From positions 1 through 64,000 of the IMG/VR virus record IMGVR_UViG_3300021387_001758: 64,000 nt of DNA; one strand, 5' to 3'. The notes under the pieces are model-generated. The model was not told the origin of the DNA and made no database searches. It was given only the letters and a program-made list of their open reading frames with translations. Below are positions 15,190-40,809 of the stretch, piece by piece. The stretch comes from a virus (Duplodnaviria > Caudoviricetes). Numbering within the stretch: the stretch's first letter is position 1; each line of letters opens with the position of its first letter. A program made the translations under genes and the position numbers.

Positions 15190-15452
15190 TAATCTTTTCC
15201 TCTATCCTTATTAGCTTTTTTCATAATAAAAAGTAAGTTTCTTCTTTGGGCCTTTGACATTTTCGGAACTTTTTCAAAAAGCTCGTCAAAAAGTTCTTCT
15301 GCGCTTTTCGTAATCGTTCTTTCTTCATCTTTAAAAAGCTTGATTCCGCAAACCGTCAATAAACCCAAATATTCTTGGACTGGTAATTGTATAAGCTCTC
15401 TTGCGAACTTATCCATATACTTATTAAGCTTTCGCTCATTTTTATCTACCAT
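15189..15452 (-). CDS. Hypothetical protein
   Basis: 87 aa, coupled to neighbours. Confidence 0.5.
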   Translation of the reverse strand: MVDKNERKLNKYMDKFARELIQLPVQEYLGLLTVCGIKLFKDEERTITKSAEELFDELFEKVPKMSKAQRRNLLFIMKKANKDRGKD

Positions 15453-16849
15453 TATTTTTTCTTCTCCTTCTCTTTTTTCTTAGCATCGCGCCGTTCCTTT
15501 TCGCATCTCTTACATTTCGAGTTAAAACCTGTTGCAGATTTACTTTTCTTCACGAAATTCCTACTATGGAGAAGTAGGGTTCTCCCACAAAAATTACATT
15601 TTCTGAAGTTTTCCGGAAAGAACAAATTTCCAATAACCTCAAAATGGTATTCTGCGGCTTCATTAATTTTTTTAATAACCTTTTGCTTAAAGATAGTACT
15701 AATATAGTTTGTTGTATAATTCTTCCCATACTTTTGATTAATGAACTTTGCTATGTCCTGATTTCGCTCCCCTTGGATTTTTAGGCGCAAAATATCTTGT
15801 TGGGCGTCGCTAAGCTCCGCAAACTCCATGTAAAAGTAAAGCGTATCAAGTAAAGCCCCACTATTAGTTTCAAAGTTGAAGTCGGCTTCTGCTCTGGCCG
15901 CAGACTCTTCCAATTCCTGTATCATGGAAATGATCTGGTAAACGTCTTCTTGGCGGCGGAAATCAAGGAAGTTGGGGGTTTGGTTTAGTTCGGAAATTTT
16001 CTGCCAGTAAAATTGGGAAATGTAAGAAAGTTCAGAAGATGTATACTGCGCGGGGTCGAAGTCCAATCGAAAAATAAGCTGGGAGTAGTCTGAGTTAATG
16101 TTGAAAAGACCCAGCGGCGCAACTAAAACGTCACAATCCCAACTTATAGAGTCGTTTGCGGGCGGGCGCAACTCGTAGGAGGAAGGAAGTAGAGTCGGCG
16201 CATAGGAGTCCTTATACGTAAATTGCTGTTTACGAAGTTCGACTAATTCGTGACGTTTTTTAAGGTAGGAGTAGGGGTTGAGGTGGAGGGAACGCTCTTC
16301 GAGGGTTTTTTGTTCCTCTTCTGTAAATCGGTTCAAAAGCTCGTCGCGCGGTGGGGTTTTGCGTTTTCCGCTTCGTAAATCGTAGTAGTTTAGGGTAAGT
16401 TCGAGTTGGTCTATCGACCTCCATAACTCTTCTAAAATCGCTAAAATCTCTGGTGGAGCCGACTTACGAGCTGCCGCACGACTAAATGTAGCTTTGGGTT
16501 GGGTATAGTGGACCGGATCGTTCGTTAGGGTTGCTTCGTTGAAGGTGGGAGCTTCAATAAGGGCGTCAAGCGATTCAGTTTTTTCCTTTGTATCCCAAGT
16601 CCCATGACTCGTCTTAATCTCTATGCCGGCTTTAGCTGCTACGGTTTCTTTTTTGTTAAAGGTTTTTTGGGTTAGGGGTTCCTCGTTTTGGCTTGCGTTT
16701 AAGGCGCGGCCCCATAGAATGTAGTTACCCATTGTTTCGAGTTCGTCGGATGTTGGGTTGAAGTCAATACGTTGAAGATAGTCTTCGAGGAATTTTTTGC
16801 GTTCCTCGGCATCTATAATTGTAAAATCTAGGTGTAATCGGTTTGCCAT
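15452..16849 (-). CDS. HTH (sigma70 region-4/LuxR-like) plus C-terminal Zn-finger protein; possible late transcription regulator
   Basis: LSDAQQDILRLKIQGERNQDIAKFINQKYGKNYTTNYISTIF HTH-like; CNFC...CKRC; first gene of the structural operon. Confidence 0.55.
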   Translation of the reverse strand: MANRLHLDFTIIDAEERKKFLEDYLQRIDFNPTSDELETMGNYILWGRALNASQNEEPLTQKTFNKKETVAAKAGIEIKTSHGTWDTKEKTESLDALIEAPTFNEATLTNDPVHYTQPKATFSRAAARKSAPPEILAILEELWRSIDQLELTLNYYDLRSGKRKTPPRDELLNRFTEEEQKTLEERSLHLNPYSYLKKRHELVELRKQQFTYKDSYAPTLLPSSYELRPPANDSISWDCDVLVAPLGLFNINSDYSQLIFRLDFDPAQYTSSELSYISQFYWQKISELNQTPNFLDFRRQEDVYQIISMIQELEESAARAEADFNFETNSGALLDTLYFYMEFAELSDAQQDILRLKIQGERNQDIAKFINQKYGKNYTTNYISTIFKQKVIKKINEAAEYHFEVIGNLFFPENFRKCNFCGRTLLLHSRNFVKKSKSATGFNSKCKRCEKERRDAKKKEKEKKK

Positions 16850-16930
16850 ATATCTAATCTATGAATACGCTCGGCTTCGATTTGGTTTGTGGAGAGGTGA
16901 AGCGAACGTTAATTTTCCTCCTATAATATA

Positions 16931-16959
16931 AGTATAGCAGATTGCGGAGGAGAAGTCAA
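16931..16959 (-). promoter_or_regulatory. sigmaA-type promoter for the structural operon
   Basis: Minus strand TTGACT-N17-TATACT. Confidence 0.7.
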
Positions 16960-17674
16960 ATTTTAGAAGGCATAGGTTGAAAAAAATATCTTGTGGGGAT
17001 AATAGGTTCAGATTTTTGTTTCGTGGAGATAATGTAGGGGCCGTTTTTCTCTAACGCTTTCCAAAACCTTCCTTTTCCTAAAATAACCCCGGCCCTTCGA
17101 GCGATTGACTTTGTTAAATTTTTAACAACCTCTTCATCAATTCTCACTCAATTTTTCCGCAAGTTACTGTCGCCCAAAAGAACATATGTTCTTTTTTCTA
17201 TTGTCAAAAAATTTTTAGAATTTCGAAAGAATTCCTAAAAGGGGCCGGTCATTTTTTATTCACCCCTCTTCAATAAAAACCACCCCTCTTTTAGTCGAAC
17301 AAAGGAGATCCTATTCTGCGGGCCAGGGTCGCGAAAAAGAACATATGTTCTTTTATTTAGTCCGGACTTTGTTAAATTTTTAACAAAGTCGTAGTCCGGA
17401 CTTTGTTAAATTTTTAACAGGTGATCGTCTTATCTTTGGGACGTTTTAGTCCGGCCTTTGTTAAAAATTTAACAAAGTCCCGCGCGAGTTGGGGGGCCAA
17501 ACACTTTAGCGCATTAAAGTAGTAAAGCGAACCTCTTCATTTTGTATTGTGTATACAGTATACAAGGACAAAAAAATAAATTAAAAAGATAATAAAAAAA
17601 TAATAAAAAGGGGTTGACAAGTTATAGTATCCATGCTATTATATATATGTAAGAAAGAGAGAGGAGAAAAGGAA

Positions 17675-18085
17675 ATGACAAAGGCTTACTACTTCGATAT
17701 GGACGGCGTGCTCGCAAACTTCCATAAGGCATATAAAGAGGATAGAATGGTTGCTCTTAAGAGAGATAAGATGGCGAACCTTGAACCGTTCGAAGCAAAC
17801 GTGAAACTCGTTCGCAACCTTATCGCACATAACGAAGTAGTATATGTACTCACTAAGGCAGCCAACGAAGAGGCGATGGAAGGCAAGATTGAATGGCTTG
17901 CAAAGTACGTTCCTGAGATGGATAAAGAACACTTCATTTGCATCGTAGGTCATGGTAAGAAAGTTGACTTCATTCGTGAAGATGGCGTACTCGTTGATGA
18001 TGATATGAAGAACCTTAAGCCGTGGGCAAAGGAAGGACACGAAGTATACTACGTAGAAGAAAAGGGAATGGAAGTAGTATTCTAA
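17675..18085 (+). CDS. HAD-superfamily 5'(3')-nucleotidase-like protein, paralog 1
   Basis: DMDGVLANF motif I, LVDDD motif IV; own promoter at 17614-17642; start at 17675 by RBS. Confidence 0.75.
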   Translation: MTKAYYFDMDGVLANFHKAYKEDRMVALKRDKMANLEPFEANVKLVRNLIAHNEVVYVLTKAANEEAMEGKIEWLAKYVPEMDKEHFICIVGHGKKVDFIREDGVLVDDDMKNLKPWAKEGHEVYYVEEKGMEVVF

Positions 18086-18260
18086 AGATAGAAAGAGGGT
18101 AGATAAAAGGTTTACCCTCTTCATTTATAGATAGAAAATAGATAGATAAATAGACAGTGAAAAAAGTTTAACTAATTTGTAAAAAGGGGTTGACAGTACC
18201 TCTTCATTGTGGTATATTATAGTTAAGGAAAGGGAAGATAATTGAAAGGAAGGTAAACAA

Positions 18261-18437
18261 ATGAGGAATATAAACACTGAAAACATTATTATAGCAATTA
18301 CAATAATTGCGGCAATTATCGGAACAATCATTGGTATTATTGCAATCGTAAACGGACAGATAGTAGACAGTGAAACAGTTAGCCCCGCCAACCCAGCAAG
18401 TCCCGTTCATCAGTTAATGAAGAGTGTAATGTATTAA
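18261..18437 (+). CDS. Small single-pass membrane protein (58 aa)
   Basis: Hand-translated MRNINTENIIIAITIIAAIIGTIIGIIAIVNG...; promoter, RBS and terminator (18437-18458). Confidence 0.6.
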   Translation: MRNINTENIIIAITIIAAIIGTIIGIIAIVNGQIVDSETVSPANPASPVHQLMKSVMY

Positions 18438-18695
18438 AGAAGTCGAAAGACTTCTTTTCATTTACCAAGGGACGAACATACGTTCGCACCAAGCGAACAT
18501 ATGTTCGTCTACTGCGGGCGGCCGCGCGCACTTTAGCACGTTAAAGCATTAAAGCATTAGTATCGAGTTTGTTTGTTAATTAACAAACGACATATTTATA
18601 CATTGAAATGAATATTTATTTTTTTAATTTGAGGGTTGACAAATATATTCAGTTGTGGTATATTATAATTGACGAAAGGAAAGGAGAAAACACAA

Positions 18696-19439
18696 ATGAC
18701 AAAACTAATATTCGATACTGAGACTACTGGACTGGATAAGCCGTTCTGTTACAATGTGGGCTATATCATTGTTAATGATGAGGGTATGGTAGAGGTAAAG
18801 AAAGAGTATGTATGCGAGCAGGTATGGCATAATCCAATGCTATTTACTACTGCATACTATGCGAACAAAAGACCAATCTATGTTAACAGAATGAGAGCAA
18901 GACAGATAACAATGAAGAAATTCGGTTATATCTGTCAAGAGATGATTAGAGATATTGAGCGCTATAATGTTACAATGGCTTTTGCTTTCAATAGCGACTT
19001 TGACGAGAAAGTGTTCGACTTCAATTGTGAATGGTTCAAATGTAATAATCCTTTTGATAATGTGGAAATTAAGGATATTAGAGGTTTCGTTCATCACTTC
19101 TTAATTGATAACGAGTTTAAAGCATTTTGCGAAGAACACGAACTGTTTACAGAATGTGGTAACTATTCCACCACAGCCGAAACAATGTATAGATATATAA
19201 CTGATGATAATACTTTTGAGGAAGAGCACACGGCGTTAAGTGATAGCATTATTGAGTGGGAAGTATTGAAGAAATGTATTGAAAGGGGCGCTGATACTAC
19301 AGAGAATTATAAAGCGTATCGCTCAATTAAAAGAGATACCGAAAAGGTATTAACAATTGATAATAAAGGCGATATATATACAATTCCTTGTAAAGAGTAT
19401 AAAGTTTATAAAAGCAAAAATAAAATTGTAATTAAATAA
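18696..19439 (+). CDS. DEDDh 3'-5' exonuclease (DnaQ-like), paralog 1
   Basis: IFDTETTG, AFNSDFD, HTALSDS motifs. Confidence 0.85.
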   Translation: MTKLIFDTETTGLDKPFCYNVGYIIVNDEGMVEVKKEYVCEQVWHNPMLFTTAYYANKRPIYVNRMRARQITMKKFGYICQEMIRDIERYNVTMAFAFNSDFDEKVFDFNCEWFKCNNPFDNVEIKDIRGFVHHFLIDNEFKAFCEEHELFTECGNYSTTAETMYRYITDDNTFEEEHTALSDSIIEWEVLKKCIERGADTTENYKAYRSIKRDTEKVLTIDNKGDIYTIPCKEYKVYKSKNKIVIK

Positions 19440-19535
19440 AAAAGTTTTGAAAAAGGGGTTGACAAACCCCTTTTTCCATGTTATTATATGTATGTAAGAA
19501 AGAGAGAGAGTTAAAAAAAGAAAGGAAGTAAAAAA

Positions 19536-19736
19536 ATGAAGTTCTTTAAGATGATGAAGGCGGCGGTAATGATTGGTAAAATGTTCAGCGATGAGGAAAA
19601 AATCAAAGAGTTAATCGACGAATACTTTGCCGAAACCGGATTAACAGTCACTGTTGAAGAGGTAAAGGCAAACGATTCAGAAAAAGTCGACTGGTTTGCG
19701 GAATGGGTTTCTGATAAGGTTATCGCACAACTTTAA
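19536..19736 (+). CDS. Hypothetical protein
   Basis: 66 aa with own promoter and RBS. Confidence 0.6.
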   Translation: MKFFKMMKAAVMIGKMFSDEEKIKELIDEYFAETGLTVTVEEVKANDSEKVDWFAEWVSDKVIAQL

Positions 19737-19839
19737 AAAATAAAATAAAAAAATAAGCGAAAGGGGTTGACAAAACCCCTTTTGTATTGTATTATAATTA
19801 TAGAAAGAGAGAGGAAGAAAAGAAAGAGAGGTAAATAAA

Positions 19840-19998
19840 ATGACAAGAAAGATGGTAGAAGAAAGAATGAAATTCGTTGAAGAAAGACTTTTCTATATCG
19901 CGATGGTAGATATGCCGACCGCAAGAGATAAAGAACTTGAAAGAGAATTTGAACACGAACTCAAAGGACTTAAAGAACAGATGAAGGCGTTCGGTTGA
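19840..19998 (+). CDS. Hypothetical protein (52 aa)
   Basis: Hand-translated MTRKMVEERMKFVEERLFY...; promoter and RBS. Confidence 0.55.
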   Translation: MTRKMVEERMKFVEERLFYIAMVDMPTARDKELEREFEHELKGLKEQMKAFG

Positions 19999-20228
19999 CG
20001 GACGCTTTTTTATGTCAACCAAAAGAACATATGTTCGTCCTGGCGCGGGCGCGTCCACTTTAGCACACTAAAGCGTTAAAGTGTAGATCTTTCGGGCGCG
20101 CTTGTTAAAAATTTAACAAAGTTCCTCTTCAAAAAATTTTAAATTTTTTAAAATAAATACTTGACAAATAAATATATTTTATATATAATATATATAGAAA
20201 GAGAAAGGTAAAAGAAAGGAAAATAAAA

Positions 20229-20672
20229 ATGACTAAAGCAATTTACTTCGATATGGATGGAACAATCGCTAACCTTTACGGAGTTGAAAATTGGTTAGAT
20301 ATGCTTATCAATGGAGACGAAACACCATACAGAGTGGCGAAACCGATGATAAAAATGAATGTACTTGCAAGGTACTTAAACAAGTTACAGAGACATGGTT
20401 ATATAATCGGAATTGTTAGTTGGTTGTCTAAAGGTGGAAACACAGAATATAATAAAAAAGTAACAGAAACAAAAATCAAATGGTTGCATACTCACTTGAA
20501 AAGTGTTGAATGGAACGAAATAAAAATCGTTGAATACGGAACACCTAAAGAAACGATTGTAAACTATCCAAAAGGTATTCTGTTCGATGATGAAAAACAG
20601 AATAGAAAAAATTGGAAAGGTAAAGCATATAAAGAAAATCAGATTATGGAAGTGTTGAAAGCGATTGCATAA
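20229..20672 (+). CDS. HAD-superfamily nucleotidase-like protein, paralog 2
   Basis: FDMDGTIANL, LFDDE motifs. Confidence 0.75.
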   Translation: MTKAIYFDMDGTIANLYGVENWLDMLINGDETPYRVAKPMIKMNVLARYLNKLQRHGYIIGIVSWLSKGGNTEYNKKVTETKIKWLHTHLKSVEWNEIKIVEYGTPKETIVNYPKGILFDDEKQNRKNWKGKAYKENQIMEVLKAIA

Positions 20673-20757
20673 AATCGCTTTCAACCTTAAAAAAGGTATT
20701 GACAAGTTAAAAATTATATGCTATAATAAAAGCAGATAAAGGAAAGGGGAAAAGAAA

Positions 20758-21051
20758 ATGACACAGAGTATTATGCAGTTGGCGGAATTATTAGACGAGT
20801 GGAATATTCCTTATGAATTAACTGACGATGTATGCGGAAACGAAAATAATCAGTTATGGTATCCTAACTATAAACATAATATTTGTGATGTAATTTGTCA
20901 CGAATACAGTTACGGCGGAAAAGATGGCTTACTTGAAATAATGGGTTTAGTCCCTGAAGAGGTCGGCGATGATGTAGAAGGGTATTTAACAGTTGCGGAA
21001 GTATTCCACAGAATTCTGCAGGACTATTGCGAAAATAAAGTAAAAAATTAA
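20758..21051 (+). CDS. Hypothetical protein
   Basis: 97 aa; promoter and RBS. Confidence 0.65.
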   Translation: MTQSIMQLAELLDEWNIPYELTDDVCGNENNQLWYPNYKHNICDVICHEYSYGGKDGLLEIMGLVPEEVGDDVEGYLTVAEVFHRILQDYCENKVKN

Positions 21052-21142
21052 AAAGTTTTTTTCTAAAAAGGGTTGACAAACCCTTTTTTTCATGTTATAT
21101 TATATATGTAAGAAAGAGAGAGATAAAAGAAAGGAAAAGAAA

Positions 21143-21316
21143 ATGGCTTACGTAGAAATGTTCGATTATGTGCTTTCTGTAGAACAGTATGAACGCGAAC
21201 GCGCGCAGTACCACGAAGAATGGTTAGCGATGGATGATTGGGACCGTTCATGGTATGATGATGAAGAGGAATTCATCGAAGACCGTTTCCATTCCGCTTG
21301 CTATCCGGATGACTAA
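21143..21316 (+). CDS. Small acidic protein (57 aa)
   Basis: Start re-placed by RBS; terminator at ~21327-21352. Confidence 0.6.
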   Translation: MAYVEMFDYVLSVEQYERERAQYHEEWLAMDDWDRSWYDDEEEFIEDRFHSACYPDD

Positions 21317-21614
21317 AGAAAAGAAAAGTAAGCCGCAAGGCTTATTTTTTTCTATCCATCAAAAGAACATATGTTCGGGCGCGGCCGGCCGCACTTTAGC
21401 GCATTAAAGTAATAAAGTGCGCGACTTTCGCCGTCGATTGTTAAATTTTTAACAATTGATCCTATATATATATTATAATTCTCTTCCCATTATATCATAC
21501 CATACAAGAGAGATAATGTCAAGGGAAAAATTAAAAAAAATTTGTTAAATTTTCCCTTGACAGATTAAAAAACTCATGCTATAATAAAGACACAAAAGGA
21601 AAGGAGAGTAAAAA

Positions 21615-21851
21615 ATGAAAGCATTTGTTACGAAAGCAAACTCGGATTATTGGTACAAAATTAAAGAATTTGACACGATGGAAGATATTGCAAAATTTAT
21701 GAAAGAGGTTGAGTGCGGATTAATTATTGAAGAAAATGATTATACTGACGATGTACTTTTTGAATTTTGGGACGGAATGAAACAGGAAGACATTCCGATT
21801 ATTAAAGAATGTGCTTTACATATCACTATTTACAATGATTATGTAGAATAA
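21615..21851 (+). CDS. Hypothetical protein
   Basis: 78 aa; promoter, RBS, terminator at ~21872-21900. Confidence 0.65.
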   Translation: MKAFVTKANSDYWYKIKEFDTMEDIAKFMKEVECGLIIEENDYTDDVLFEFWDGMKQEDIPIIKECALHITIYNDYVE

Positions 21852-22065
21852 AAATTCTGATAAAGAGAAAAGAGTTAGTCTTTACTAACTCTTTTCTTTT
21901 GCGCGTCCCTCTTCAAAAAAAAACTTGACAAAATAAAAAAAATATGATATAATATATATAGAAAATAAAAAAGAAAAGAAAATTTGAAAAAAAATTAGAA
22001 AAAGGGTTGACAAACAAAATTTGAGTGGTATAATAATAGTAGAAAAAGAGAAAGGAGAAAAGAAA

Positions 22066-22422
22066 ATGGCTGTTAGTAGAAAAGTAGAAAGAGAACTTTT
22101 GAGAGAAGAGTATTTGAACAAACTGATTGAGTACTTTAAAGCCGATGAAGATGTTTTGAGAGTGAAAAGTAACGAAATCGCATTTCCTGTAGTTGGTTGT
22201 AACGATAGTGAGGATTTTATCGTAATTACAGTAAAAGTGCCTACGGGTGCAAACAAAGGTACAGAGCCTTACGATGGTTACGAACTTGCCGAAGAATACG
22301 AAATGAAGTTGAAAGAGAAAGAACAGAAAAAGAAAGAAAAGGCAATCGCAAAAGAAAAGAAAATCAAGCGTGACGAAGAAGTCAGACGCAAGAAAAAGGA
22401 AATCGCCGAAAAAGGAAAATAA
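22066..22422 (+). CDS. Hypothetical coiled-coil protein, MAVSRKVERE family paralog 1
   Basis: Close paralog of 27748..28107. Confidence 0.75.
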   Translation: MAVSRKVERELLREEYLNKLIEYFKADEDVLRVKSNEIAFPVVGCNDSEDFIVITVKVPTGANKGTEPYDGYELAEEYEMKLKEKEQKKKEKAIAKEKKIKRDEEVRRKKKEIAEKGK

Positions 22423-22510
22423 AAAAAATAAAAAATAAAAGAGAAAAGGGGTTGACAAAATCCCTTTTTTCATATATAATATAATTGTAAAGAGAAAGGG
22501 GAAAGAAAAA

Positions 22511-22693
22511 ATGAAAAAGAAATACAGACTGAATAAAGTAAAATTTATCCGTTTTATCTGCTTTACAATTATGCTTTTAATCATCGGTTGGTTCATGGTT
22601 TCATACATTGAAATTCTTTGTAAGAATATCACAGAAAATCCGACTTACAGCGACTGGAATTTTATCTTTGTTGCACAAAAACTTTTGAAATAA
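22511..22693 (+). CDS. Small membrane protein
   Basis: 60 aa with one hydrophobic segment. Confidence 0.6.
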   Translation: MKKKYRLNKVKFIRFICFTIMLLIIGWFMVSYIEILCKNITENPTYSDWNFIFVAQKLLK

Positions 22694-22914
22694 TCACCTT
22701 TTACCTCCTTTTTTACAATATATGGAAAAGGTCACCACTGAGTGGTGACTTTTTCCGCTCTTCAAAAAGAACATATGTTCGCCTCCGGCGCCGGACCGGA
22801 GATTGTTAAAAAATTAACAATTTCGGCACCGCGCACTTTAACGCTTTAACGTGGTAAAGTGTACGCAGACGGGCGCGCCCGCTTTAGCGCGCTAAAGTGG
22901 TAAAGGATTGTACT

Positions 22915-23470
22915 AAATAAAAAACATTAAAAAAGGTATTGACATTTAGGGCGGGCGGGTGTATACTATAATTGTTCCAAGGGAGGGACAAACGAAAATA
23001 AAAAAAATAAAAAAAGTTTGAAAAATCCCTTGACAAATCAAAGCCAATGTGCTAATATATACTTGAGGGTAGGAGAGTTAAGGGTTTACCTCACTACAAA
23101 GTAGCAAGCAGTCGCAAGTACAAGCACTACCGAAAAAACCCGAAAAAAGTTTAAAAAAAGTGTTGACAAACTAAAGCAAATGTGCTAATATATAATCAAG
23201 GAAAGGGAGATACTTCTGAGACTGTTCCCCAATACCGAAAGGCAAGAGAACTGTGAGCCAAATAAAATTTGTAGCCGCATAGGAAGTATCACCCGAAATC
23301 CTAAAAAAATCTAAAAAAGGTATTGACAAACTTGAAAAAGTATGTTAATATATAAATGTCAAGAGGGTCGTGGAGAGGTCGCCCCACGAAGTAGCGTAAG
23401 AGGATAACACACAGACCTAAATCGATAAGTGAAAACCTCTTGACAATATTACAAAAGTGTGATAATATAT
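22915..23470 (+). promoter_or_regulatory. Stack of five tandem sigmaA promoters with ORF-less intervals
   Basis: TTGACA near 22940, 23031, 23164, 23323, 23440, each with a -10-like hexamer. Confidence 0.75.
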
Positions 23471-23546
23471 AATCACAGAGAGGGAGACAGGAACTCCCAA
23501 AGGTAACTAAAAAGGGTCACGACCAACGTGAGAAAGTAGGTACACT

Positions 23547-23888
23547 ATGACTAACAGAGAATTCTTCGAAATGGTAATGAATGGTAACGTAACTGACGAG
23601 GTTAAGGCTCACGCTGAAATGTCGATTGAGAAACTCGATGCGCGCAACGCAAAGAGAGCATCTCAGCCGTCAAAGAGAGCGATTGAGAACGAACCTATCA
23701 AGGCTAACATCAGAGAGTATCTCGCTGATAAAGAGCCGACTACGGCAAGCGAAATTGCCAAGGGACTTGAACTGACTGTTCAGAAAGTTTCCGCACTGTG
23801 TAGACAGATGGTAAATGATGGTATTCTCACCGTTACCGAGGTTAAGGTAAAGGGAAAGGGCAATCAGAAAGCGTATGCTATCGGTTGA
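23547..23888 (+). CDS. Winged-HTH (MarR/ArsR-like) protein, paralog 1
   Basis: TTASEIAKGLELTVQKVSALCRQMVNDGIL. Confidence 0.75.
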   Translation: MTNREFFEMVMNGNVTDEVKAHAEMSIEKLDARNAKRASQPSKRAIENEPIKANIREYLADKEPTTASEIAKGLELTVQKVSALCRQMVNDGILTVTEVKVKGKGNQKAYAIG

Positions 23889-24181
23889 CAATAATTCCCA
23901 GCCGGGAAGAGAGAGAAAATCTCTCTCTTCCTTTTTTTACCATTCCGCGGTTAACAATAACAGGTATTATGTCAACCGCGACAATAATAATATTATTGTC
24001 AACCGGCCAAAAATCTTTATCCACAGATTGTTAAATTTTTAACAGGGCGGCCGGCCGCGCGCACTTTAGCGAGTTAAAGCGTTAAAGGATCGAGCCAAAA
24101 AAATAATTGGAAAAAAGTACTTGACAAGTCCTCTTCATTATGGTAATATATACTTGTAAGAAGGAGAAAGGAGAAATAAAA

Positions 24182-24373
24182 ATGACTTGTACTGAATGGA
24201 ATAAAGGGATTAAGTTCCTCACTACTGCAGAGGTAGGCGCGTGGGTTGACCACGAAGACCGCACAGTTATTATCGAGGAGATGTGCGGAGGCAGATATTT
24301 ACTCCTCGACCGCAAAGAAGTTTGCGGGGTGACCGATTCGGTCATCGAGGCGATGTCATTCCTTAGGGGATAG
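24182..24373 (+). CDS. Hypothetical protein
   Basis: 63 aa; start by RBS. Confidence 0.6.
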   Translation: MTCTEWNKGIKFLTTAEVGAWVDHEDRTVIIEEMCGGRYLLLDRKEVCGVTDSVIEAMSFLRG

Positions 24374-24527
24374 GCAACCGCCTTTTTTATTAACCAATGA
24401 ACGAACGTTCGCGCGGCCGGCCGCGCGCACTTTAGTCTGCTAAAGCATTAAAGGATCGAAAAAAAGTACTTGACAAATCCTCTTCATTATGGTAATATAT
24501 GGGTAGAAAGAGAAAAGGAGATAAAAA

Positions 24528-24701
24528 ATGAAAGTGATTTTTGCAGGGTATCTTATTGTAGTCTTTTCCCTTGGCGTTCATGGGATTTTTTATGATAAAA
24601 CCGATAAAAACGGAAATTTTAAAGTAAATTGGCCTTTTGGTTTATTTCTTTTCTTGTTTGGACTTACTCCCATAATTGCGAAAATATGTAATTTAATTTG
24701 A
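24528..24701 (+). CDS. Small two-TM membrane protein (57 aa)
   Basis: Hand-translated MKVIFAGYLIVVFSLGVHGIF...WPFGLFLFLFGLTPII. Confidence 0.55.
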   Translation: MKVIFAGYLIVVFSLGVHGIFYDKTDKNGNFKVNWPFGLFLFLFGLTPIIAKICNLI

Positions 24702-24770
24702 AATTGCACTTGACAAGTCCTCTTCATTGTGATATACTTATTATAGAAAGAAAGGAAAGGAGAAAGGAAA

Positions 24771-24938
24771 ATGAAAACGTACTTATTTGAAGATTTTGAA
24801 ACGGGTGAGAGATTCTTTGTTGAAGAGGAAACACCGGAAAAGGCAATTGCAGTTGCCGATGAATATTTTGACCACGCTATTTTCATGTGGGAAGTATCCG
24901 AAGAATGGGCGGACTTGGCAGGATTTGACACTTACTAA
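24771..24938 (+). CDS. Small acidic protein (55 aa)
   Basis: Hand-translated MKTYLFEDFETGERFFVEEE...; promoter and RBS. Confidence 0.6.
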   Translation: MKTYLFEDFETGERFFVEEETPEKAIAVADEYFDHAIFMWEVSEEWADLAGFDTY

Positions 24939-25042
24939 AAAAAATTAAAAAAGTTTTGAAAAAGGGTTGACAAGTTCAACCCTTTATGGTAATATATAAT
25001 CGTAAGGAAGAGAGAGTTAAAAAAAAGAGAAAGGAAAAAGAA

Positions 25043-25234
25043 ATGATGTACTTAGTAATTTTTATCGAAGAATACGTTGGCTACCACTTTGACGAACACA
25101 CCAAGTTTTTCAAGGATGAACAGTCGGCAAAGGAATATTGCCAGAAATTAAACGCCGAATTTGCCGAAGAAAATCATTGTTCGGTTGAAGATTTAGGTGA
25201 CTACTACACGGTTGAGTGGGTTAAGGAAGGTTAG
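25043..25234 (+). CDS. Small acidic protein
   Basis: Start by RBS; terminator at ~25250-25276. Confidence 0.6.
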   Translation: MMYLVIFIEEYVGYHFDEHTKFFKDEQSAKEYCQKLNAEFAEENHCSVEDLGDYYTVEWVKEG

Positions 25235-25586
25235 AAAGGACTAACCCACCAAAAAGAGGGCAACCTCTTTTTTTTTGTTCTGCCGGCGAACATACGTTCT
25301 CGGCGGCCGCCCTCGCGCACTTTAGCGTAGTAAAGTGGTAAAGTGGACGGATCCGGCGCCCGCGCATAAACATACATGAAAATGTATAAATATTTTTTTC
25401 AAAAAAGTATTGACAAAATTGATTATATATATTATACTATAATGGGGAAGTATGCCCAGGCGTAAAAGTGCGAATTTTCTGAATTGTCAGAAAATTAAAA
25501 CTTTTTATTTTGGGGTTGACAAATTCCGTTCTATCCCTTATAATAGTAACTGTAAGGTAAAGAGAAAAGGAAAGGAACGAAACAAC

Positions 25587-26252
25587 ATGAAAATCGACAA
25601 AAGAAAAAACTATTATCTGACAATCGACACGGAAACGGCAAACGGATTTGATGACCCGATTGTATACGATTTAGGCGGATGTATACATGACAAGAAAGGC
25701 AACGTAATGGAAACATTTTCCTTTATCATTTACGAAACCTTTTGCGGAATGAAAGATTTAATGCAGAGTGCCTACTACTCCGAAAAAATTCCGATGTATC
25801 AGAAAGAAATTGACGAGGGAAAAAGAAAAATCGTAACCTATACCACCGCCAAAAGATATATCAATGCACTTTGTAAAAAGTACAATGTCAAGGCAATAAT
25901 CGCCCACAATATGAGATTTGATTATAGGGCAACGACACGGACGCAAAGATATATCACGAAATCAAAAGTCAGATTTTTTCTTCCGTATGGCGTTGAATTG
26001 TGGGATACAATGAAAATGGCAAATGATACAATTTGCAAACAGAAAACATATATCAAGTGGTGTAAAGAAAACGGATATATGACAAAGAACGGACAAGTCA
26101 GAAAAACGGCGGAAATCCTTTACAAGTACATTTCAGGCAACTGGGATTTTGTGGAAAATCATACAGGACTTGAAGATGTGCTAATCGAAAAGGAAATCTT
26201 TTCCAAGTGTATGGCACAACATAAGCCGATGAGAAAATTATGTTTTGACTAA
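25587..26252 (+). CDS. DEDDh 3'-5' exonuclease, paralog 2
   Basis: IDTETANG, AHNMRFD, HTGLEDV. Confidence 0.85.
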   Translation: MKIDKRKNYYLTIDTETANGFDDPIVYDLGGCIHDKKGNVMETFSFIIYETFCGMKDLMQSAYYSEKIPMYQKEIDEGKRKIVTYTTAKRYINALCKKYNVKAIIAHNMRFDYRATTRTQRYITKSKVRFFLPYGVELWDTMKMANDTICKQKTYIKWCKENGYMTKNGQVRKTAEILYKYISGNWDFVENHTGLEDVLIEKEIFSKCMAQHKPMRKLCFD

Positions 26253-26335
26253 AAAAATTCTAAAAAAGGGGTTGACAAAGTCAGCCCCTTTTGGTATTAT
26301 AATTATAGAAAGAGAGAGAAAGAAAGGTAAGAAAA

Positions 26336-26488
26336 ATGTATATGGTATGGGTATTTGATGAAGATTTATATGATGATGTGTTGATTTTTGAAGGGTCATA
26401 TGAACAGTGCCAAGAGGTAGTAGCCGAAGGGCGCGCAATCGGTGAGGACCCGTATATCGTAGCCAGCGAGGACTACTACGAGGACTAA
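26336..26488 (+). CDS. Small acidic protein (50 aa)
   Basis: Hand-translated MYMVWVFDEDLYDD...; terminator at ~26499-26527. Confidence 0.55.
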   Translation: MYMVWVFDEDLYDDVLIFEGSYEQCQEVVAEGRAIGEDPYIVASEDYYED

Positions 26489-27029
26489 GCCGAAAAGGAT
26501 AAGCCGAAAGGCTTATCTTTTTTTTTGTTCTTAAAAAGAACATATGTTCGCGGCGGGCCGGTGGCGCGCACTTTAGTCTGCTAAAGCGTTAAAGCGATCC
26601 GCGCCGCTTGTTAAAAATTTAACAATCGATCCGGTCCGCCGATTGTTAAAAAATTAACAAAGATTTTTTTCAAAAAGGGGTTGACTTTTTCCCTATGTGG
26701 GTATATACTATAATTGTCAAGGGGAGAGGAAGCCGAGGGACTCACGAGGGCGCGCACTCCACGAGAGAAGGAAAAAAATTCTCGAAAAAAAATAAAAAAA
26801 CCCCTTGACACTATCACAAAAATGTGATAATATATAATTGACCCAAGGGGAGAGGTTAAAAACGAAAGTAGTAAAATATTACAACCCCGCGGGTGAAAAA
26901 AAGTTTTAAAAAGTACTTGACAAGATAGACAAAAGGTGCTATACTTAAGTCAAGGAAAGGGGAAAGACAGGAACTTTCCCAAAGGTAAATCTAAAAAGGG
27001 TTGTGACCAACACAAGAAAGAGGTGTCTT

Positions 27030-27374
27030 ATGACAAAGAGAGAATTCATGGAAATGGTTATCGCTGAGGTTACTAACGCAGAACTCAAGGCTTTTGCCCA
27101 GTCTGAAATCGAAAAGATGGACGCGCGCAACGCTAAGAGAGCCGAAACGCCTTCCAAGACGGCAATCGCTAACGAGCCTATCAAGGCACAGATTGTCGAA
27201 TTCCTGAAGGGTTGCGAGGAAAAGGTTACCGCTTCCGCTATCGCTTCCGAGGTTGAAATCTCAACGCAGAAGGCTTCCGCCCTTTGCAGACAGTTGGTAG
27301 CAGATGGTGTTCTGACCGTCGCAGATGTGAAGGTTAAGGGCAAGGGTACACAGAAGGGTTACGAAATCGCGTAG
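27030..27374 (+). CDS. Winged-HTH protein, paralog 2
   Basis: VTASAIASEVEISTQKASALCRQLVADGVL. Confidence 0.75.
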   Translation: MTKREFMEMVIAEVTNAELKAFAQSEIEKMDARNAKRAETPSKTAIANEPIKAQIVEFLKGCEEKVTASAIASEVEISTQKASALCRQLVADGVLTVADVKVKGKGTQKGYEIA

Positions 27375-27747
27375 CCTAACCCAAGCCGAGGAAGGGAAAA
27401 ATTTTCCCTTCCTTTTTTTACCATTCAGACGAACATATGTTCGTGGCAGAAATTGGAAGAACATATGTTCGCGAACATACGTTCGCGGTCGATCTGGTCC
27501 GGACTTTGTTAAAAATTTAACAATCGGGGCCGGCGCCGCGCACTTTAACACACTAAAGTGCTAAAGTCTTTCGATCCGGCGCGCGGTTTACATAATATTA
27601 TTATCGTTATGCGGTGCGGTTTACATAATATTATTATCGTTACGAAAAAATCCGAAAAAAATTTTTGAAAAAGGGTTGACAAATTGTGTTCTATCCCTTA
27701 TACTATATATAGAAAGTAAGAGTTGAGGTTAAGGAAAGGAGTTAACT

Positions 27748-28107
27748 ATGGCAGTATCGCGCAAGGTAGAAAGAGAAATCATCCGCAAACAGTATCTCGA
27801 AATGGTAGCCGAATTCCTCAAGGAAAAGGGTGAAGATGTTCTCCGTGTTAAGTCCAACGAAATCGCTTTTCCAGTCGTTGGATGTGAAGATAGCGAAGAT
27901 TTTCTCGTTATCACTTTCAAGGTGCCGACTGGCGCCAATAAGGGAATGGAACCGTATGACGGTTACGAAATGGCGGAAGAGTACGAAATGAAACTCAAAG
28001 CCAAAGAGGAAAAGGCGAAAGCCAACGCCGAAAAAAAGGCGAAGAAAATCGCTCGCGACAAAGAAATCAGAGCGAAAAAGGCAGAAATTGCCAACAAGGG
28101 AAAATAG
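27748..28107 (+). CDS. MAVSRKVERE family paralog 2
   Basis: Shares LRVKSNEIAFPVVGCxDSEDF and KVPTGANKG with 22066..22422. Confidence 0.75.
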   Translation: MAVSRKVEREIIRKQYLEMVAEFLKEKGEDVLRVKSNEIAFPVVGCEDSEDFLVITFKVPTGANKGMEPYDGYEMAEEYEMKLKAKEEKAKANAEKKAKKIARDKEIRAKKAEIANKGK

Positions 28108-28619
28108 CCATTTTCTTCCAGAGGGAAGAGGGTCGGTTGACCCTCTTCTTTTATTGTAAACCGCGCAACAATAATAATATTATGTCAACCACGAACATAT
28201 GTTCGCGGCAGCCGAATTTCAAAGGCGAACATATGTTCGCGGCCGGCCGTAGTTGTCCACTTTAACACACTAAAGCGATAAAGTGCGCGCCGGCGGGCGT
28301 CCACTTTAACACGTTAAAGTAGTGAAGTGCAGAAATCCGGGCCGCTCGTTAAATTTTTAACAAAGTCAAGTTTTCTGGCAACTATTCCGAAAATTAGTTT
28401 TTTAGGAATAGTTACAACCTCTTCACTATATATAGTATATTTCCCTCTTCAATACCACTATATATAGTATGTTTTGGTCGTGCCAACTATTCCGAAAAAA
28501 TGCTTTATCGGCATAGTTATACCGCCGAATTGTCAGAATATTCCAACTATTCAGAATTGTCAGAATATTCCAGCTTTTCGCTTTAGCGTACTAAAGCGTT
28601 AAAGCGTTGTCAAATTTTA

Positions 28620-28860
28620 AAATTTTTCCAGGAGCTGCGAAAGAGCTGCGATCGAAAATTTTTTTCACGGCCGTGGGGAGCTGCGATTTGACTTTTTTAT
28701 TTCGCATCCAGGAGCTGCAAAAAATTTGACTTTAAAAGTCAAATTTCTTTTATAAAATTCAAGGAGCTGCGCTTTGGAAATTTGACAAAAAAAGTCAAAT
28801 TTTTAAGGAGCTGCAACTTAGAGCTTTTGGGAATTTGACTTTAAAAGTCAAATTTTCAGC
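28620..28860. repeat. Cluster of GGAGCTGC direct repeats and TTTGAC-N7-GTCAAA palindromes
   Basis: GGAGCTGC at 28631, 28677, 28711, 28763, 28807; palindromes at 28722, 28778, 28832 (and ~29580). Confidence 0.8.
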
Positions 28861-29115
28861 GCGCACCCGCACGAACCTCTTCAAATTAAAATTTGAAAAA
28901 GCTCTAAAAATCTTTTATAATATATATAGAAAGTGAGGGAAGAAAAAAATAAAAAGCTCCTCCGCTGAAGAGGAAAGGGCAAAAGAAATTTTGACAAATC
29001 CTCAAAAATCTTATATAATATATATGTAAGATGAAGAGAGGGAAAAGTAACTTCCTTCTAAAGTAAAAACCATAACGTAACTGGGTGGTGACCTACACCA
29101 GAAAGAGAGTACAAA

Positions 29116-29457
29116 ATGACTAAGAGAGAAATGATGAACCTGATCGCTAACGGAACTATCAATGAAGAGGTTATGGCTTGGGCTGTCGGCCAGATCGAGA
29201 AGATGGATGCGGCTAACGAGAAGCGCAGAAACTCCGTTTCTAAGAAAGCGCTTGAGAACGCTCCGATCATCGACAGAATCGTGAACGAGATCCTCGGTGA
29301 GGAACCGATGACTGCTACTGATGTAGCTGGAGTTCTCGGAGTTTCTGTCCAGAAAGCATCTGCACTCCTGCGCACTGCCGTGAAGGAAGGTAGAGCTGCT
29401 GCCGAGGACGTGAAAGTTAAGGGCAAAGGCACTCAGAAGGGGTACACTCTCGCGTAG
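29116..29457 (+). CDS. Winged-HTH protein, paralog 3
   Basis: MTATDVAGVLGVSVQKASALLRTAVKEGRA. Confidence 0.75.
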   Translation: MTKREMMNLIANGTINEEVMAWAVGQIEKMDAANEKRRNSVSKKALENAPIIDRIVNEILGEEPMTATDVAGVLGVSVQKASALLRTAVKEGRAAAEDVKVKGKGTQKGYTLA

Positions 29458-29499
29458 TGCCGCGCGAGCTGTAGTAAACGGCTGAAGAGGGGAAATCAC

Positions 29500-30690
29500 C
29501 CCTCTTCTTTTTATTTTATACGTATACTTAGACGTATTAGAATACGTTTGAGTATTATTTTTTTAACTTTTAATAGGAAAATTTGACTTTTTAAGTCAAA
29601 TTATTAATAATTTTAAACTTTTTTAAAGAAAAAATTTGATTTTAGTCGATGTGTGCGGCACCCACCTATTTCTGACCATACCAACTTCTTTCATAATCCT
29701 CCAACTCCTTTCAAAACCCCTCAACTTCTTTCAAAAACACGCAACTTCTTTCATTTTCCCCTTCTGAACTACCCCCTTCTCCGAGATCTACTGCGCAGGA
29801 CCACCGCCCTCCCATGCCCCGTGGCAGTCTACCTCCCTATAACGTATTACTAAACTTCTACTTATACGTAAACTTATACGTAACAACCCGTTACCAGCTG
29901 GGTTATCCTTAGTCGTATACGTATACTTATACGTAGACTTATACGTTTTACCGTTACCCTTTTCCTACCTTTTTCGTTACCCTTTTCCTTATCCGTTTAC
30001 TTATCCTTTTTTGTTACCTTTTCCGGTACATTTCCCGTTATCCTTTTTCGTAAACCCTTTCCCGGTACCTTAAACATATACGTATACGTATACGTTTATC
30101 GTATTCGTTTTCGTAGAGGTAGAAAATAAAAAAGCTCCTTCCGCTAGAGGAAGAAGCTAAGTTAATCGTAGTAGTTGACCGTTACGGCTCCCTTGTTTTT
30201 CCCCACCGTTGGTGGTAAAACCTGCGGGAGCTTCACAACTAGTAGAAGGTTTTTAGATTTGAGGTACCTTAATATTATACGTTTATACGTATAAGTATAT
30301 GTATACGTATATTTATATTTTTTCCTTATACGTATAATAAGTGATTTTAGTTAAAAGAAGCTACAATTTTTTTCGTAAAACTGCGCGAGTCCGAAATTTT
30401 TCTGCAAAATTTTTTGGAAAATTTCTGCAAAATTTTTTGGAAAATTTTTTGGAAAATTTCTGACGCTGGAAATTTTTTGGAAAAAATTTTTTTGGAAAAT
30501 TTTTTGGAAAATTTTAAGCCAGGGAAATTTTTTGGAAAATTATTTTCCCAAAATTTTTCCCAAAATTATTGATATACGTAGACTGCGCGCTGTCAAAAAC
30601 CTACTGATTTTCCCAAAATTTTTTGGAGAATTTTTTGGAAAATTTTTGATTGCGCGCAGTCGAAATAAAAAAGGAAGCTACAAAGCTTCC
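29500..30690. repeat. Non-coding low-complexity repeat tract at the strand switch
   Basis: TATACGTA(TAC) repeats ~29860-30340, CCGTTA/CCTTTTT repeats ~29950-30070, GGAAAATTTTT repeats ~30400-30650. Confidence 0.8.
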
Positions 30691-38727: not shown

Positions 38728-38802
38728 TGGCGGGAAGGATAGGACTCGAACCTACAACCTCGTGCTTAACAGGCACTTGCTCCACCATTGAGCTACCAAC
38801 CC
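38728..38802 (-). tRNA. trnN: tRNA-Asn(GUU)
   Basis: Cloverleaf, CCA; two U-U mismatches in acceptor stem. Confidence 0.85.
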
Positions 38803-38812
38803 ACGCTCAAGT

Positions 38813-38953
38813 CTATTCAGACTGCGCGCCTTCAAGATTTCTAATCTGTCTCTTCAGTTTCCTCACTACACCAGAACTCTCACCGTTCTTTCCGTTCGAC
38901 TGAAGAAGATGCAGCCTATGTTTAAGACCTTCAATAGATTTTCCCTTTGCCAT
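38813..38953 (-). CDS. Small basic protein (46 aa)
   Basis: Hand-translated MAKGKSIEGLKHRLHLLQSNGKNGESSGVVRKLKRQIRNLEGAQSE; AAGGAG RBS. Confidence 0.55.
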   Translation of the reverse strand: MAKGKSIEGLKHRLHLLQSNGKNGESSGVVRKLKRQIRNLEGAQSE

Positions 38954-38978
38954 AAAATAAACTCCTTTCTTAAAGAGC

Positions 38979-39615: not shown

Positions 39616-39810
39616 CTCCTTTCTTTACCTTATATAAATATTATACCGAAAATTTGGATTTTCGTCAAATTTTCAGAAATATTTTTCTCTAAAAATTTTA
39701 TCTTGTTTAAAGGCTTTTGTTTATCGGTACGCCACAAGAGCCTTAACTCCCGCCACTACCCTACGTTTACCGTACAGACCCTCTCAAGCGAGCGCCAGTT
39801 AGTGGATTGA

Positions 39811-40768: not shown

Positions 40769-40809
40769 AAGTCCCTTGCGTCTGCCTATTCCGCCACAAG
40801 CGCGCAGTT

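Follow-up and report, generated by a model that had tools for sequence, protein, structure and literature searches.

The window analysed here (64,000 bp; positions 1 to 64,000 of IMG/VR record IMGVR_UViG_3300021387_001758) carries an array of small genes whose long spacers contain an ordered set of repeated palindromes, which raises the question of which proteins these sites serve and what their occupancy would do. The source phage is a large, rumen-type virulent siphophage, presumably infecting Clostridia of the rumen or gut, with a genome of ~118 kb according to the CheckV completeness estimate (contig of 78,387 bp) and a terminase ~35% identical to the SPbeta-type YonF terminases. No integrase was found in the contig or in the complete relatives, so the operator arrays are not prophage switches.

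The array occupies an early (host-takeover type) gene island (16900-29500, plus strand) with positive GC skew, flanked by minus-strand modules; a sigma-like gene (15452-16849, minus strand) is divergent from the first early gene. Small genes with Shine-Dalgarno sites were called 21 times on the plus strand, from 17675 to 29457, compared with the approximately 22 counted in the first-pass annotation. A consensus scan revealed 85 promoter-like sites (33.3 +/- 5.6 in shuffles), including ~30 plus-strand sigmaA promoters scoring 10-12 of 12 with spacers of 16-17 nt, and 27 terminator-like sites (9.8 +/- 3.5 in shuffles), with ~12 terminators counted. The earlier description of most cassettes as having their own near-consensus sigmaA promoter and many a terminator is confirmed. 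The island genes are self-contained cassettes, in each of which a small ORF stands between a strong sigmaA promoter and a terminator.

The cassettes encode (i) two paralogous HAD/NT5C-type 5'-deoxyribonucleotidase-like proteins, H1 (17675-18085, plus strand; PF06941, 4.8e-10; phrog_2643, 4e-17) and H2 (20229-20672); (ii) two paralogous DEDD-exonuclease-like proteins, X1 (18696-19439, plus strand; phrog_20187) and X2 (25587-26252); (iii) a 118-aa protein with a lysine-rich tail, K1 (22066-22422, plus strand), for which no family was found, and its 74% identical paralogue K2 (27748-28107); and (iv) the winged-helix protein W1 (23547-23888, plus strand) and its paralogues W2 (27030-27374) and W3 (29116-29457). 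The W fold is a confident winged helix (pLDDT 91), and each W gene is fed by 2-5 tandem promoters, those of W1 forming an ORF-free stack (22939-23546, plus strand) of five strong promoters (22939, 23030, 23163, 23323 and 23440).

The spacer kit is found in 11 spacers of the island and nowhere else on the contig. Its order, which was recovered as originally described, is: terminator T-run, ~10-14 nt, LexA box, G+C-only block (12-20 nt), CACTTTA motif, TTGTTAA motif, A-tract and promoter. The starts of the LexA box and the CACTTTA motif are separated by 27-34 nt in seven blocks and by 65-68 nt in two, where a Rex-like box lies in between. GAAC-N4-GTTC occurs 18 times on the contig, 15 times inside 17180-28238, and the same interval holds all 11 exact GAACATATGTTC cores of the contig. 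The island also contains every contig copy of CTTTA-N6-TAAAG-N3-TAAAG (14) and every perfect copy of TTGTTAA-N4-TTAACAA (nine, in addition to three one-mismatch copies), as well as 13 of the 14 copies of CCTCTTCA; CACTTTA-N6-TAAAG is present 14 times in the kit spacers. Altogether, ~40 near-perfect copies of LexA, HisR, Rex and NrdR sites lie between the early genes. Between copies in the window the motif cores hardly vary, unlike the sequence that separates them.

A left-end operator cluster (17111-17527), placed between the sigma-like gene and the first early gene, contains Rex-type sites (17111, 17369, 17403 and 17458), LexA boxes (17180 and 17339) and a HisR-type site (17502). Kits are then found at 18474-18554 (LexA 18474 and 18495, G+C block, HisR-type 18529), 20025-20119 (LexA 20025, HisR-type 20056, Rex-type 20102), 21365-21455 (LexA 21365, HisR-type 21392, Rex-type 21438), 22769-22907 (LexA 22769, Rex-type 22803, HisR-type 22834 and 22880), 24028-24087 (Rex-type 24028, HisR-type 24062), 24399-24453 (LexA-type 24399, with four mismatches to the 14-mer but intact arms, G+C palindrome, HisR-type 24428), 25288-25343 (LexA 25288, HisR-type 25318 with no mismatch to the 20-bp consensus), 26538-26660 (LexA 26538, HisR-type 26569, Rex-type 26608 and 26643) and 27431-27566 (LexA 27431, 27459 and 27473, Rex-type 27506, HisR-type 27541). 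The right-end island (28167-28607) carries LexA boxes (28193 and 28227), HisR-type sites (28258, 28302 and 28579), a Rex-like site (28345) and a pair of NrdR-like boxes (28424 and 28456). Neither end cluster has a promoter or gene of its own.

The corresponding host proteins are linked to the SOS response (LexA), histidine (HisR, of the TrpR family), the NADH/NAD+ ratio (Rex) and dNTP supply (NrdR). The proposal of multiplexed docks for host regulators is supported, at the level of sequence, by the operator matches, the bacterial HisR loci, the NrdR-like pair and the lack of phage homologues described below, although HisR and NrdR are pathway-specific and not global regulators. Fourteen of the 15 LexA boxes are within 0-2 mismatches of the consensus CGAACATATGTTCG (PMC8270828), five of them perfect, and nine sites show no mismatch to the clostridial Rex consensus TTGTTAANNNNTTAACAA; the LexA and Rex likenesses seen at first pass are thus full-length and consensus-grade. 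The third, CACTTTA-type motif, which had been left unnamed, is the 20-bp palindrome cacTTTAnnnnnnTAAAgtg published as the HisR consensus of Firmicutes, which has been validated in vitro, histidine acting as the corepressor (PMC9413887); 12 sites differ from it by 0-2 mismatches. The phage-derived HisR pattern matches at least 120 bacterial contigs, mostly of gut or rumen Clostridia, and among 50 bacterial loci with an ORF just downstream, this ORF encodes a homologous SBP_bac_3 lipoprotein in 28, a HisZ-like protein in 6 and a Trp_repressor-family protein in 1. In gut Clostridia the motif precedes hisX-like, hisZ and hisR genes, and the bacterial operator is reported to control the his operon, the hisXYZ transporter and hisR (PMC9413887). 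Bacterial sites at the loci examined commonly overlap the promoter or sit just after it, and three candidates are reported for R. gnavus (PMC9413887), whereas the phage has 12-14, none at a promoter. The NrdR-like boxes start 32 bp apart, which corresponds to the canonical 16-bp spacer. CodY-like sites (at least 13 of 15 matches), also listed at first pass, show no significant enrichment (three inside the island vs. four outside).

Neither LexA_DNA_bind, Trp_repressor, Rex N-domain nor HTH_3 was found in the contig or the complete relatives. That three full-length agreements with published host consensus sequences should arise independently by coincidence is very unlikely. The long spacers and both array ends probably carry operators of host repressors, as predicted from these motifs, and not of a phage regulator, and there is a good chance that host proteins do bind the boxes.

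The same slot is filled differently in other phages. The LexA box is retained in eight relatives at ~65-78% DNA identity, and kit order, spacing and post-terminator placement are fixed in the window and in relatives; the expectation that related phages would share the motifs thus holds for a subset, the others having private palindromes in their place. These sister phages possess the same cassette layout, with 19-bp palindromes placed 9 nt before the -35 and centred near -54 at nearly every early promoter, which match no known host operator; a search of 401 Clostridia genomes gave no match to the type TTAGAYGT-N3-ACRTCTAA. Each genome has one palindrome type and the types differ between genomes, which indicates concerted evolution. 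The best analogue of the private palindromes is provided by the stoperators of cluster A mycobacteriophages, likewise many copies of a short, lineage-specific intergenic site co-evolving within a genome. Stoperators, however, are asymmetric sites bound by the immunity repressor of temperate phages, and neither repressor nor integrase was found in the phages analysed here.

The private palindromes, for which no known host operator is a match, favour a reading in which the boxes, too, are operators of phage proteins such as W1-W3, with a specificity coinciding with or copied from that of the host repressors. The three motif classes then parallel the three W paralogues of the window, whose winged-helix fold and tandem promoters fit the role; the proteins, taken to be highly expressed, would turn the whole early region off or on together, as might be the case for the sister palindromes. 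We consider this improbable. Phages that differ in their palindromes share a conserved W recognition helix (STQKASAL), so that helix and motif do not covary, and three W paralogues are encoded even by phages with only one palindrome class. Ten early proteins of a private-palindrome phage yielded no DNA-binding domain. The lack of phage-encoded LexA, TrpR-family, Rex or XRE-type domains and the three host-consensus matches count against it as well.

If host repressors are the ligands, their titration appears to be the most likely main consequence, a reading that we hold tentatively. Sampled Clostridia genomes have 0-3 copies each of the exact GAACATATGTTC core (41 genomes, 19 sites in total) vs. 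11 in 11 kb of the island, and perfect Rex sites number 15 in 61 sampled genomes vs. nine in the same 11 kb, so that the island exceeds any sampled host-class genome in perfect LexA and Rex sites. Because the sites combine maximal predicted affinity with numbers above those of a whole host genome and a location outside promoters, the main effect is taken to be exerted in trans. Phage DNA would sequester LexA, HisR, Rex and NrdR, increasingly so as it replicates, and the SOS, ribonucleotide-reductase, fermentation and histidine-supply regulons would be derepressed to the benefit of the phage. Clustered high-affinity sites that lower the amount of free DNA-binding protein are known in the form of chromosomal DnaA titration sites (PMC12371093) and, as mentioned in PMC8457756, synthetic transcription-factor decoy arrays, but neither are phage-borne or multiplexed for several regulators, and no description of a phage DNA sponge for host repressors was found in the literature. 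Against titration stand the single genome copy present when early genes act and, more speculatively, the small gain to be expected should host DNA be destroyed by the early proteins of exonuclease-like (two) and dNMPase-like (two) type. DNA modification might also alter binding; a thymidylate-synthase-type hydroxymethylase, the sole modification enzyme sought, is absent from the two complete LexA-type relatives. A pure sink would also need neither a fixed kit order nor LexA boxes ~10-14 nt after the terminator T-run, features expected of a cis-acting nucleoprotein structure (roadblock or insulator), and the sister palindromes, exactly 9 nt upstream of each -35 and not found in the 401 Clostridia genomes, point to cis regulation by some factor.

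These features fit an explanation that is nearly as likely, if doubtful in itself, in which the same host repressors act on the phage's own early cassettes. As a host-state gate, a protein bound ~12 nt after each terminator would halt RNA polymerase while it is on the T-run, making termination tighter, and boxes 20-75 nt before the -35 would interfere with UP-element contacts, making early expression dependent on host DNA damage, redox state, histidine and dNTP levels. As an insulator, the boxes would shield early expression whatever the host state, since at least one of three proteins would always be bound. A precedent exists in the virulent Bacillus phages phi29 and Nf, in which Spo0A boxes repress early promoters and block replication, and parS sites are also present (PMC2731898). 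There, as is predicted here, a virulent Firmicutes phage has several host-regulator sites in its early region and couples infection to host physiology; yet phi29 and Nf use one regulator, for which repression has been shown directly and whose boxes overlap early promoters as well as origins of replication, whereas the island has ~40 consensus-grade predicted sites for three or four unrelated repressors, none over a promoter, and promoterless clusters. SPbeta, also a large Firmicutes siphophage with GAAC-N4-GTTC boxes, has 10 SOS boxes, with LexA binding in vitro recorded for three promoter regions in the account of PMC8270828 (data of Au et al. 2005). It is temperate, and its boxes are described there as having 3-5 mismatches and being spread over 134 kb in promoter regions, whereas the virulent phage has 15 within 11 kb, placed after terminators and for the most part 0-2 mismatches from the consensus. 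Less easily reconciled with cis control is the finding, in line with the first-pass annotation, that no box overlaps a -35, promoter spacer or -10, all lying upstream of the next -35 at variable distances (20-690 bp). In the right-end cluster there is no promoter or gene to control, SOS off, histidine high, NADH low and dATP high do not define a coherent single host state, and read-through would add little because every cassette has its own strong promoter.

Whichever way bound repressors act, cassette exchange probably also uses the identical short sequences as crossover points. That the kits and promoter/terminator units are mainly short homologies for shuffling, with protein binding incidental, seems unlikely to us. 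Gene order, which was compared across 20 relatives and is not invariant, differs together with accessory content around a core of four families, and concerted evolution of the palindrome type is in keeping with such exchange. Promoter-early stem-loops (PeSLs) of T4-type phages, reportedly described by Arbiol et al. in 2010, consist of an early promoter joined to a stem-loop and belong to hyperplastic early regions with small ORFs shuffled between relatives. Six compact spacers of the island recall that design, the -35 TTGACA lying in the loop of the terminator hairpin at 19449-19487 (plus strand) and the -35 again within the hairpin at ~19757, 21065, 22448, 24964 and 26268; PeSLs are not known to carry a host operator kit, whereas the long spacers here have three or four protein-binding motifs in addition. 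A 24-nt motif is present in two direct copies at 27585-27641 (minus strand) and a third at 28167-28190 (plus strand), with no match expected by chance; the likeness to dif noted at first pass is presumed. However, plain homology needs no exact identity to three host operators, and copies differ in the central N3 or N4 but not in the dyad arms, the signature of selection for a dimeric binder and not of copy-and-paste. No recombinase gene was found, and all relatives, at ~65-78% DNA identity, are too distant for a crossover to be mapped. The duplicated cassettes, earlier taken as a sign of shuffling, are ancient paralogues (31-74% identical) present in every relative and do not per se indicate recent exchange.

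Adjoining the array is an iteron-like zone (28620-28860) with six GAGCTGC repeats and three AATTTGAC..GTCAAATT palindromes, found in the same position in relatives whatever their palindrome type. It brings up the notion, to which we give very little credence, that the island, as in T5 or SPO1, enters the cell first or forms a long terminal repeat, its repeat-rich non-coding zones having a role in injection by steps, in protecting the ends or in starting replication. This would leave the identity to host operators unexplained, and the complete relatives close as circles with assembly overlaps of only 107-127 bp. On the side of an entry or end function are the conserved zone itself, the early dNMPase-like genes, which recall T5 dmp, and the size of the island (12.6 kb), similar to that of the T5 and SPO1 terminal repeats.

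The window covers the first 64 kb of a viral contig of 78,387 bp. This contig has an estimated completeness of 66% (CheckV), which corresponds to a genome of about 118 kb. The gene content of the window includes a large terminase, a portal, a Dit-type tail protein, a sigma-like protein and an array of 21 tRNA genes (38728-44376, minus strand). The terminase shares 43% identity with the Geobacillus virus E3 terminase; its identity to the SPbeta-type YonF terminases is about 35%. A search for tyrosine and serine recombinases found none, either in the contig or among the complete relatives (115-126 kb), and the latter also lack an XRE-type repressor. On the basis of the terminase matches and of the absence of both protein types from the complete relatives, the phage is treated here as a virulent siphovirus of Firmicutes; a temperate lifestyle was rejected, as no such recombinase was found. 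As regards hmU-type DNA modification, a thymidylate-synthase-like gene is absent from both complete relatives of the LexA type.

The early island (16.9-29.5 kb) is located on the plus strand, shows a reversed GC skew and is flanked by minus-strand modules. It gave no megablast match among 50,697 phage records, and no known RNA family was found between 16.5 and 30.6 kb. The first-pass annotation had described about 22 small genes, most with near-consensus sigmaA promoters and many with terminators, and this picture holds: 21 genes with ribosome-binding sites were called, and both promoter-like (85 vs. 33 ± 6) and terminator-like sites (27 vs. 10 ± 3.5) are more numerous than in shuffled sequences. 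About 30 plus-strand sigmaA promoters match the consensus at 10-12 of 12 positions, and every cassette has a promoter of its own. Two types of spacers were distinguished: (i) short spacers (n = 6), composed of a terminator hairpin whose loop contains the -35 sequence TTGACA, and (ii) long spacers (n = 11, both array ends included), which contain an ordered kit of motifs. Tandem stacks of five, three and two near-consensus promoters precede the winged-helix genes W1, W2 and W3 (22939-23546, 26681-27029 and 28893-29115, respectively), with 70-130 nt of non-coding DNA after each; this would mean that these genes are expressed very strongly early on or that short leader RNAs are made. An asymmetric 8-mer, CCTCTTCA, has 13 copies in the island (17129-28883), often between -35 and -10, and one elsewhere; in relatives it often stands directly 5' of the LexA box.

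The kit of the long spacers was recovered as initially described, with motif counts and an alignment of ten blocks in agreement. Its order (terminator, LexA box, G+C-only block, CACTTTA motif, TTGTTAA motif, A-tract, promoter) is fixed, as is the position of the LexA box about 12 nt behind each T-run. The island holds 15 of the 18 contig copies of GAAC-N4-GTTC and all contig copies of the exact GAACATATGTTC core (11), of TTGTTAA-N4-TTAACAA (9) and of CTTTA-N6-TAAAG-N3-TAAAG (14). In the ten-block alignment the motif cores are near-invariant and the sequence between them is non-conserved; the starts of the LexA box and the CACTTTA motif are 27-34 nt apart, with a G/C-only block, often an 8-bp GC palindrome, in between. 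Such blocks, with the palindromes GCGGCCGC and GGCCGGCC, occupy positions 18510-18528, 21378-21391, 24411-24428, 25301-25317 and 28239-28250, in a genome of 35% G+C, and GCCCGGGC is found at the equivalent place in relatives. The earlier claim that the boxes lie off the promoters was also confirmed, since no overlap was detected and the next -35 is 20-690 bp downstream; the LexA boxes, none of which overlaps a promoter, are 59-688 bp upstream of it. At both array ends the sites form dense clusters that lack a regulatory target of their own. The gene of the sigma-like protein (465 aa; 15452-16849, minus strand) is divergent from the left-end cluster; the C-terminal 160 residues of this protein match a phage sigma-factor PHROG (2.6e-14), and no Pfam family match was obtained.

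The 15 LexA boxes comprise five perfect 14-mers, seven with one mismatch, two with two and one with four relative to CGAACATATGTTCG. By sequence (dyad GAAC-N4-GTTC, optimum CGAACATATGTTCG) they belong to the Firmicutes LexA (Cheo/SOS) boxes; by position they differ from such boxes, which are found at the promoters of damage-inducible genes, as none of them overlaps a promoter. CGAACATATGTTCG is the LexA consensus, and SPbeta carries ten SOS boxes, LexA binding having been measured in vitro (PMC8270828); the same dyad was obtained by DAP-seq of Clostridium thermocellum LexA (PMC8457756). A prophage SOS switch, with LexA as the lysogeny repressor, was rejected, given the lack of an integrase, an HTH_3 and a LexA domain and the location of the boxes outside promoters. 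The Rex-type sites, nine perfect and three with one mismatch to the 18-bp palindrome TTGTTAANNNNTTAACAA, occur in the island only and are by sequence clostridial-type Rex operators; TTGTTAANNNNTTAACAA is the clostridial Rex consensus of the literature, and the Rex motif of C. thermocellum resembles that of C. acetobutylicum.

The third motif, left unnamed in the first-pass annotation, is named here as a HisR-type operator. Twelve sites have 0-2 mismatches to the 20-bp palindrome cacTTTAnnnnnnTAAAgtg and two further sites start with CGCTTTA. The phage-derived pattern, scanned against a bacterial genome collection, matched at least 120 bacterial contigs, overwhelmingly of gut and rumen Clostridia, in which the motif is commonly located within or just 3' of a promoter. 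At 35 of the 50 bacterial loci with an ORF just downstream, the product of this ORF is a HisX-like binding protein (28 loci, homologous SBP_bac_3 lipoproteins), HisZ-like (6) or of the Trp_repressor family (1). These genes match the published HisR regulon, and thus both sequence and bacterial gene context assign the motif to the operators of HisR (TrpR family). cacTTTAnnnnnnTAAAgtg is the Firmicutes HisR consensus, validated in vitro with HisR of Ruminococcus gnavus and histidine as the corepressor (PMC9413887).

CodY-like sites, also listed in the first reading, did not hold up: matches at 13 or more of 15 positions number three inside and four outside the island, the best (14/15 to AATTTTCWGAAAATT) being at 25482, and without enrichment over background they are not assigned to the CodY box (AATTTTCWGAAAATT). 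One 24-mer of the island is present in three copies and is presumably dif-like. Two NrdR-like boxes start at 28424 and 28456, i.e., 32 bp apart, which yields the canonical 16-bp spacer, and each differs at about one position from the NrdR box consensus. The spacing agrees with that of NrdR sites (two 16-bp boxes, 15-16 bp apart; PMC12051234). Whereas NrdR sites overlap promoters of ribonucleotide reductase operons, the pair has neither a gene nor a strong plus-strand promoter near it, the next gene being at 29116.

The exonuclease-like early protein (33-76% identity) is encoded at 21 IMG/VR loci. The cassette layout is retained at all of them, as are four core families, namely W (winged-helix), X (exonuclease-like), K and H (dNMPase-like). 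The expectation that the spacer motifs recur in related phages was borne out in part: eight relatives have the LexA box after the terminator in common, some of them with HisR and Rex-like motifs as well, whereas other lineages carry private palindromes instead. These are TTAGAYGT-N3-ACRTCTAA (19 bp, 13-28 copies; loci L009, L011 and L008 of sister phages, and record G003 at 27-43 kb) or TCGTACGT-N3-ACGTACGA (8-13 copies), placed exactly 9 nt upstream of -35 at nearly every early promoter. In every genome the sites are restricted to the early island. The palindrome arms are invariant and the central bases variable, a mark of selection exerted by a dimeric binding protein. A search of 401 Clostridia genomes did not find TTAGAYGT-N3-ACRTCTAA (control: perfect Rex consensus in 8 of 61 genomes), and it was rejected as a common host operator; given this absence, the binder of the private palindromes would seem to be a phage factor or a narrow-range (genus-specific) host factor.

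Cassette order proved not to be invariant, as gene order differs among 20 relatives and accessory genes differ too. This variability, together with the six hairpins bearing -35 in the loop, places the island among T4-type PeSL cassette regions, which have an early promoter fused to a stem-loop between small ORFs and a variable cassette order; for the hairpins of the island a recombination role is putative. It is very likely that the repeated units promote the exchange of cassettes as well; a role as recombination anchors, one of the alternatives raised at first, is improbable as their only one. All relatives share only about 65-78% DNA identity, a distance at which no recombination junction is mappable. 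The paralogous cassettes have 31-74% identity and occur in all relatives, and recent duplication was rejected as their origin. An integron-like cassette array, which would have an adjacent integrase and attC-type recombination sites, was also rejected: neither the contig nor the complete relatives encode a tyrosine or serine recombinase, and each cassette has its own promoter.

The sites could be operators of phage proteins, a view to which we give little credence, since LexA_DNA_bind, HTH_3, Trp_repressor (TrpR-family) and Rex N-domains are all absent from the contig and the complete relatives. W, with three paralogues, each behind 2-5 tandem promoters, is the one DNA-binding family that could be recognised in the island. 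Its recognition helix is conserved across palindrome types and shows no covariation with the spacer motifs. A confident model of W1 (pLDDT 91) gave only generic winged-helix matches in a fold search (ArsR, MarR, PadR and Z-alpha; best E about 1e-3); the weak Z-alpha-type matches may or may not relate to the GC palindromes. Among ten early proteins of one private-palindrome relative, none has a DNA-binding Pfam domain. On sequence grounds, it is not reasonable to put three full-length matches to consensus operators of the host down to chance, and from them we infer that host LexA, HisR and Rex are the likely binders of the sites.

The exact GAACATATGTTC core occurs 19 times in 41 Clostridia genomes, with a maximum of three per genome, vs. 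11 copies in the island, and perfect Rex sites number 15 in 61 genomes vs. nine in the island. In predicted quality as well as in number, the sites of the island exceed those of a host genome. A titration sink for host repressors is the reading that we tentatively rank first, on the ground that functions of use to a replicating phage would be raised once each of the four repressors is lost from its operators. Possibly, though with some doubt, the phage carries a multi-repressor sponge titrating LexA, Rex, HisR and NrdR at once. Non-coding DNA of the early region, multiplied by replication, would titrate the four repressors together, and the host SOS response, fermentation, amino-acid supply and dNTP synthesis would thus be reprogrammed without any phage protein. 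Instead of such a sink, the sites might act in cis, in roadblock-assisted termination, insulation or host-state gating; the fixed kit order, the constant distance of about 12 nt from each T-run, the palindromes of sister phages locked to promoters and the precedent of phi29 and Nf (PMC2731898) all speak for this role, which we rank second, as somewhat less likely than the sink. A DNA-entry or terminal function of the sites is most improbable.

The takeover of host transcription by phages is known to work by means of proteins, and a small number of phages sense a single host regulator via sites at their promoters. Host-regulator sites on phage genomes are already known from phi29 (PMC2731898) and SPbeta (PMC8270828), and the searchable literature yielded no description of an array in which consensus operators of three or four host repressors are multiplexed away from promoters. 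The present virulent phage has about 40 sites of predicted maximal affinity for three to four unrelated host repressors, outside all promoters. Should they act as a titration sink, host takeover would proceed by DNA sequence alone, a phage mechanism for which no literature report was found; should they act in cis, the phage would read DNA damage and redox state jointly with histidine and dNTP status. Under either reading, the arrays provide a computational marker of the host clade (Clostridia-type Rex site plus HisR) and a source of natural high-affinity operator parts.

An iteron-like zone (28620-28860 and 29570-29640), with GAGCTGC repeats and AATTTGAC..GTCAAATT palindromes, follows the cassette array and may be an origin of replication or an element for packaging. 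It recurs in relatives of every palindrome type (L008, 11790-12000; L009, 11740-11880; L011, 13440-13690). A stretch of about 850 bp without genes (29500-30350) holds 17 of the 24 contig copies of TATACGTA-type repeats. Within the early island of one LexA-type relative (record G002 of locus L015), two tandem arrays (93565-93760 and 96631-96760) are built of a repeat of about 26 bp containing the palindrome GGTTAGTTGAAACTAACC.
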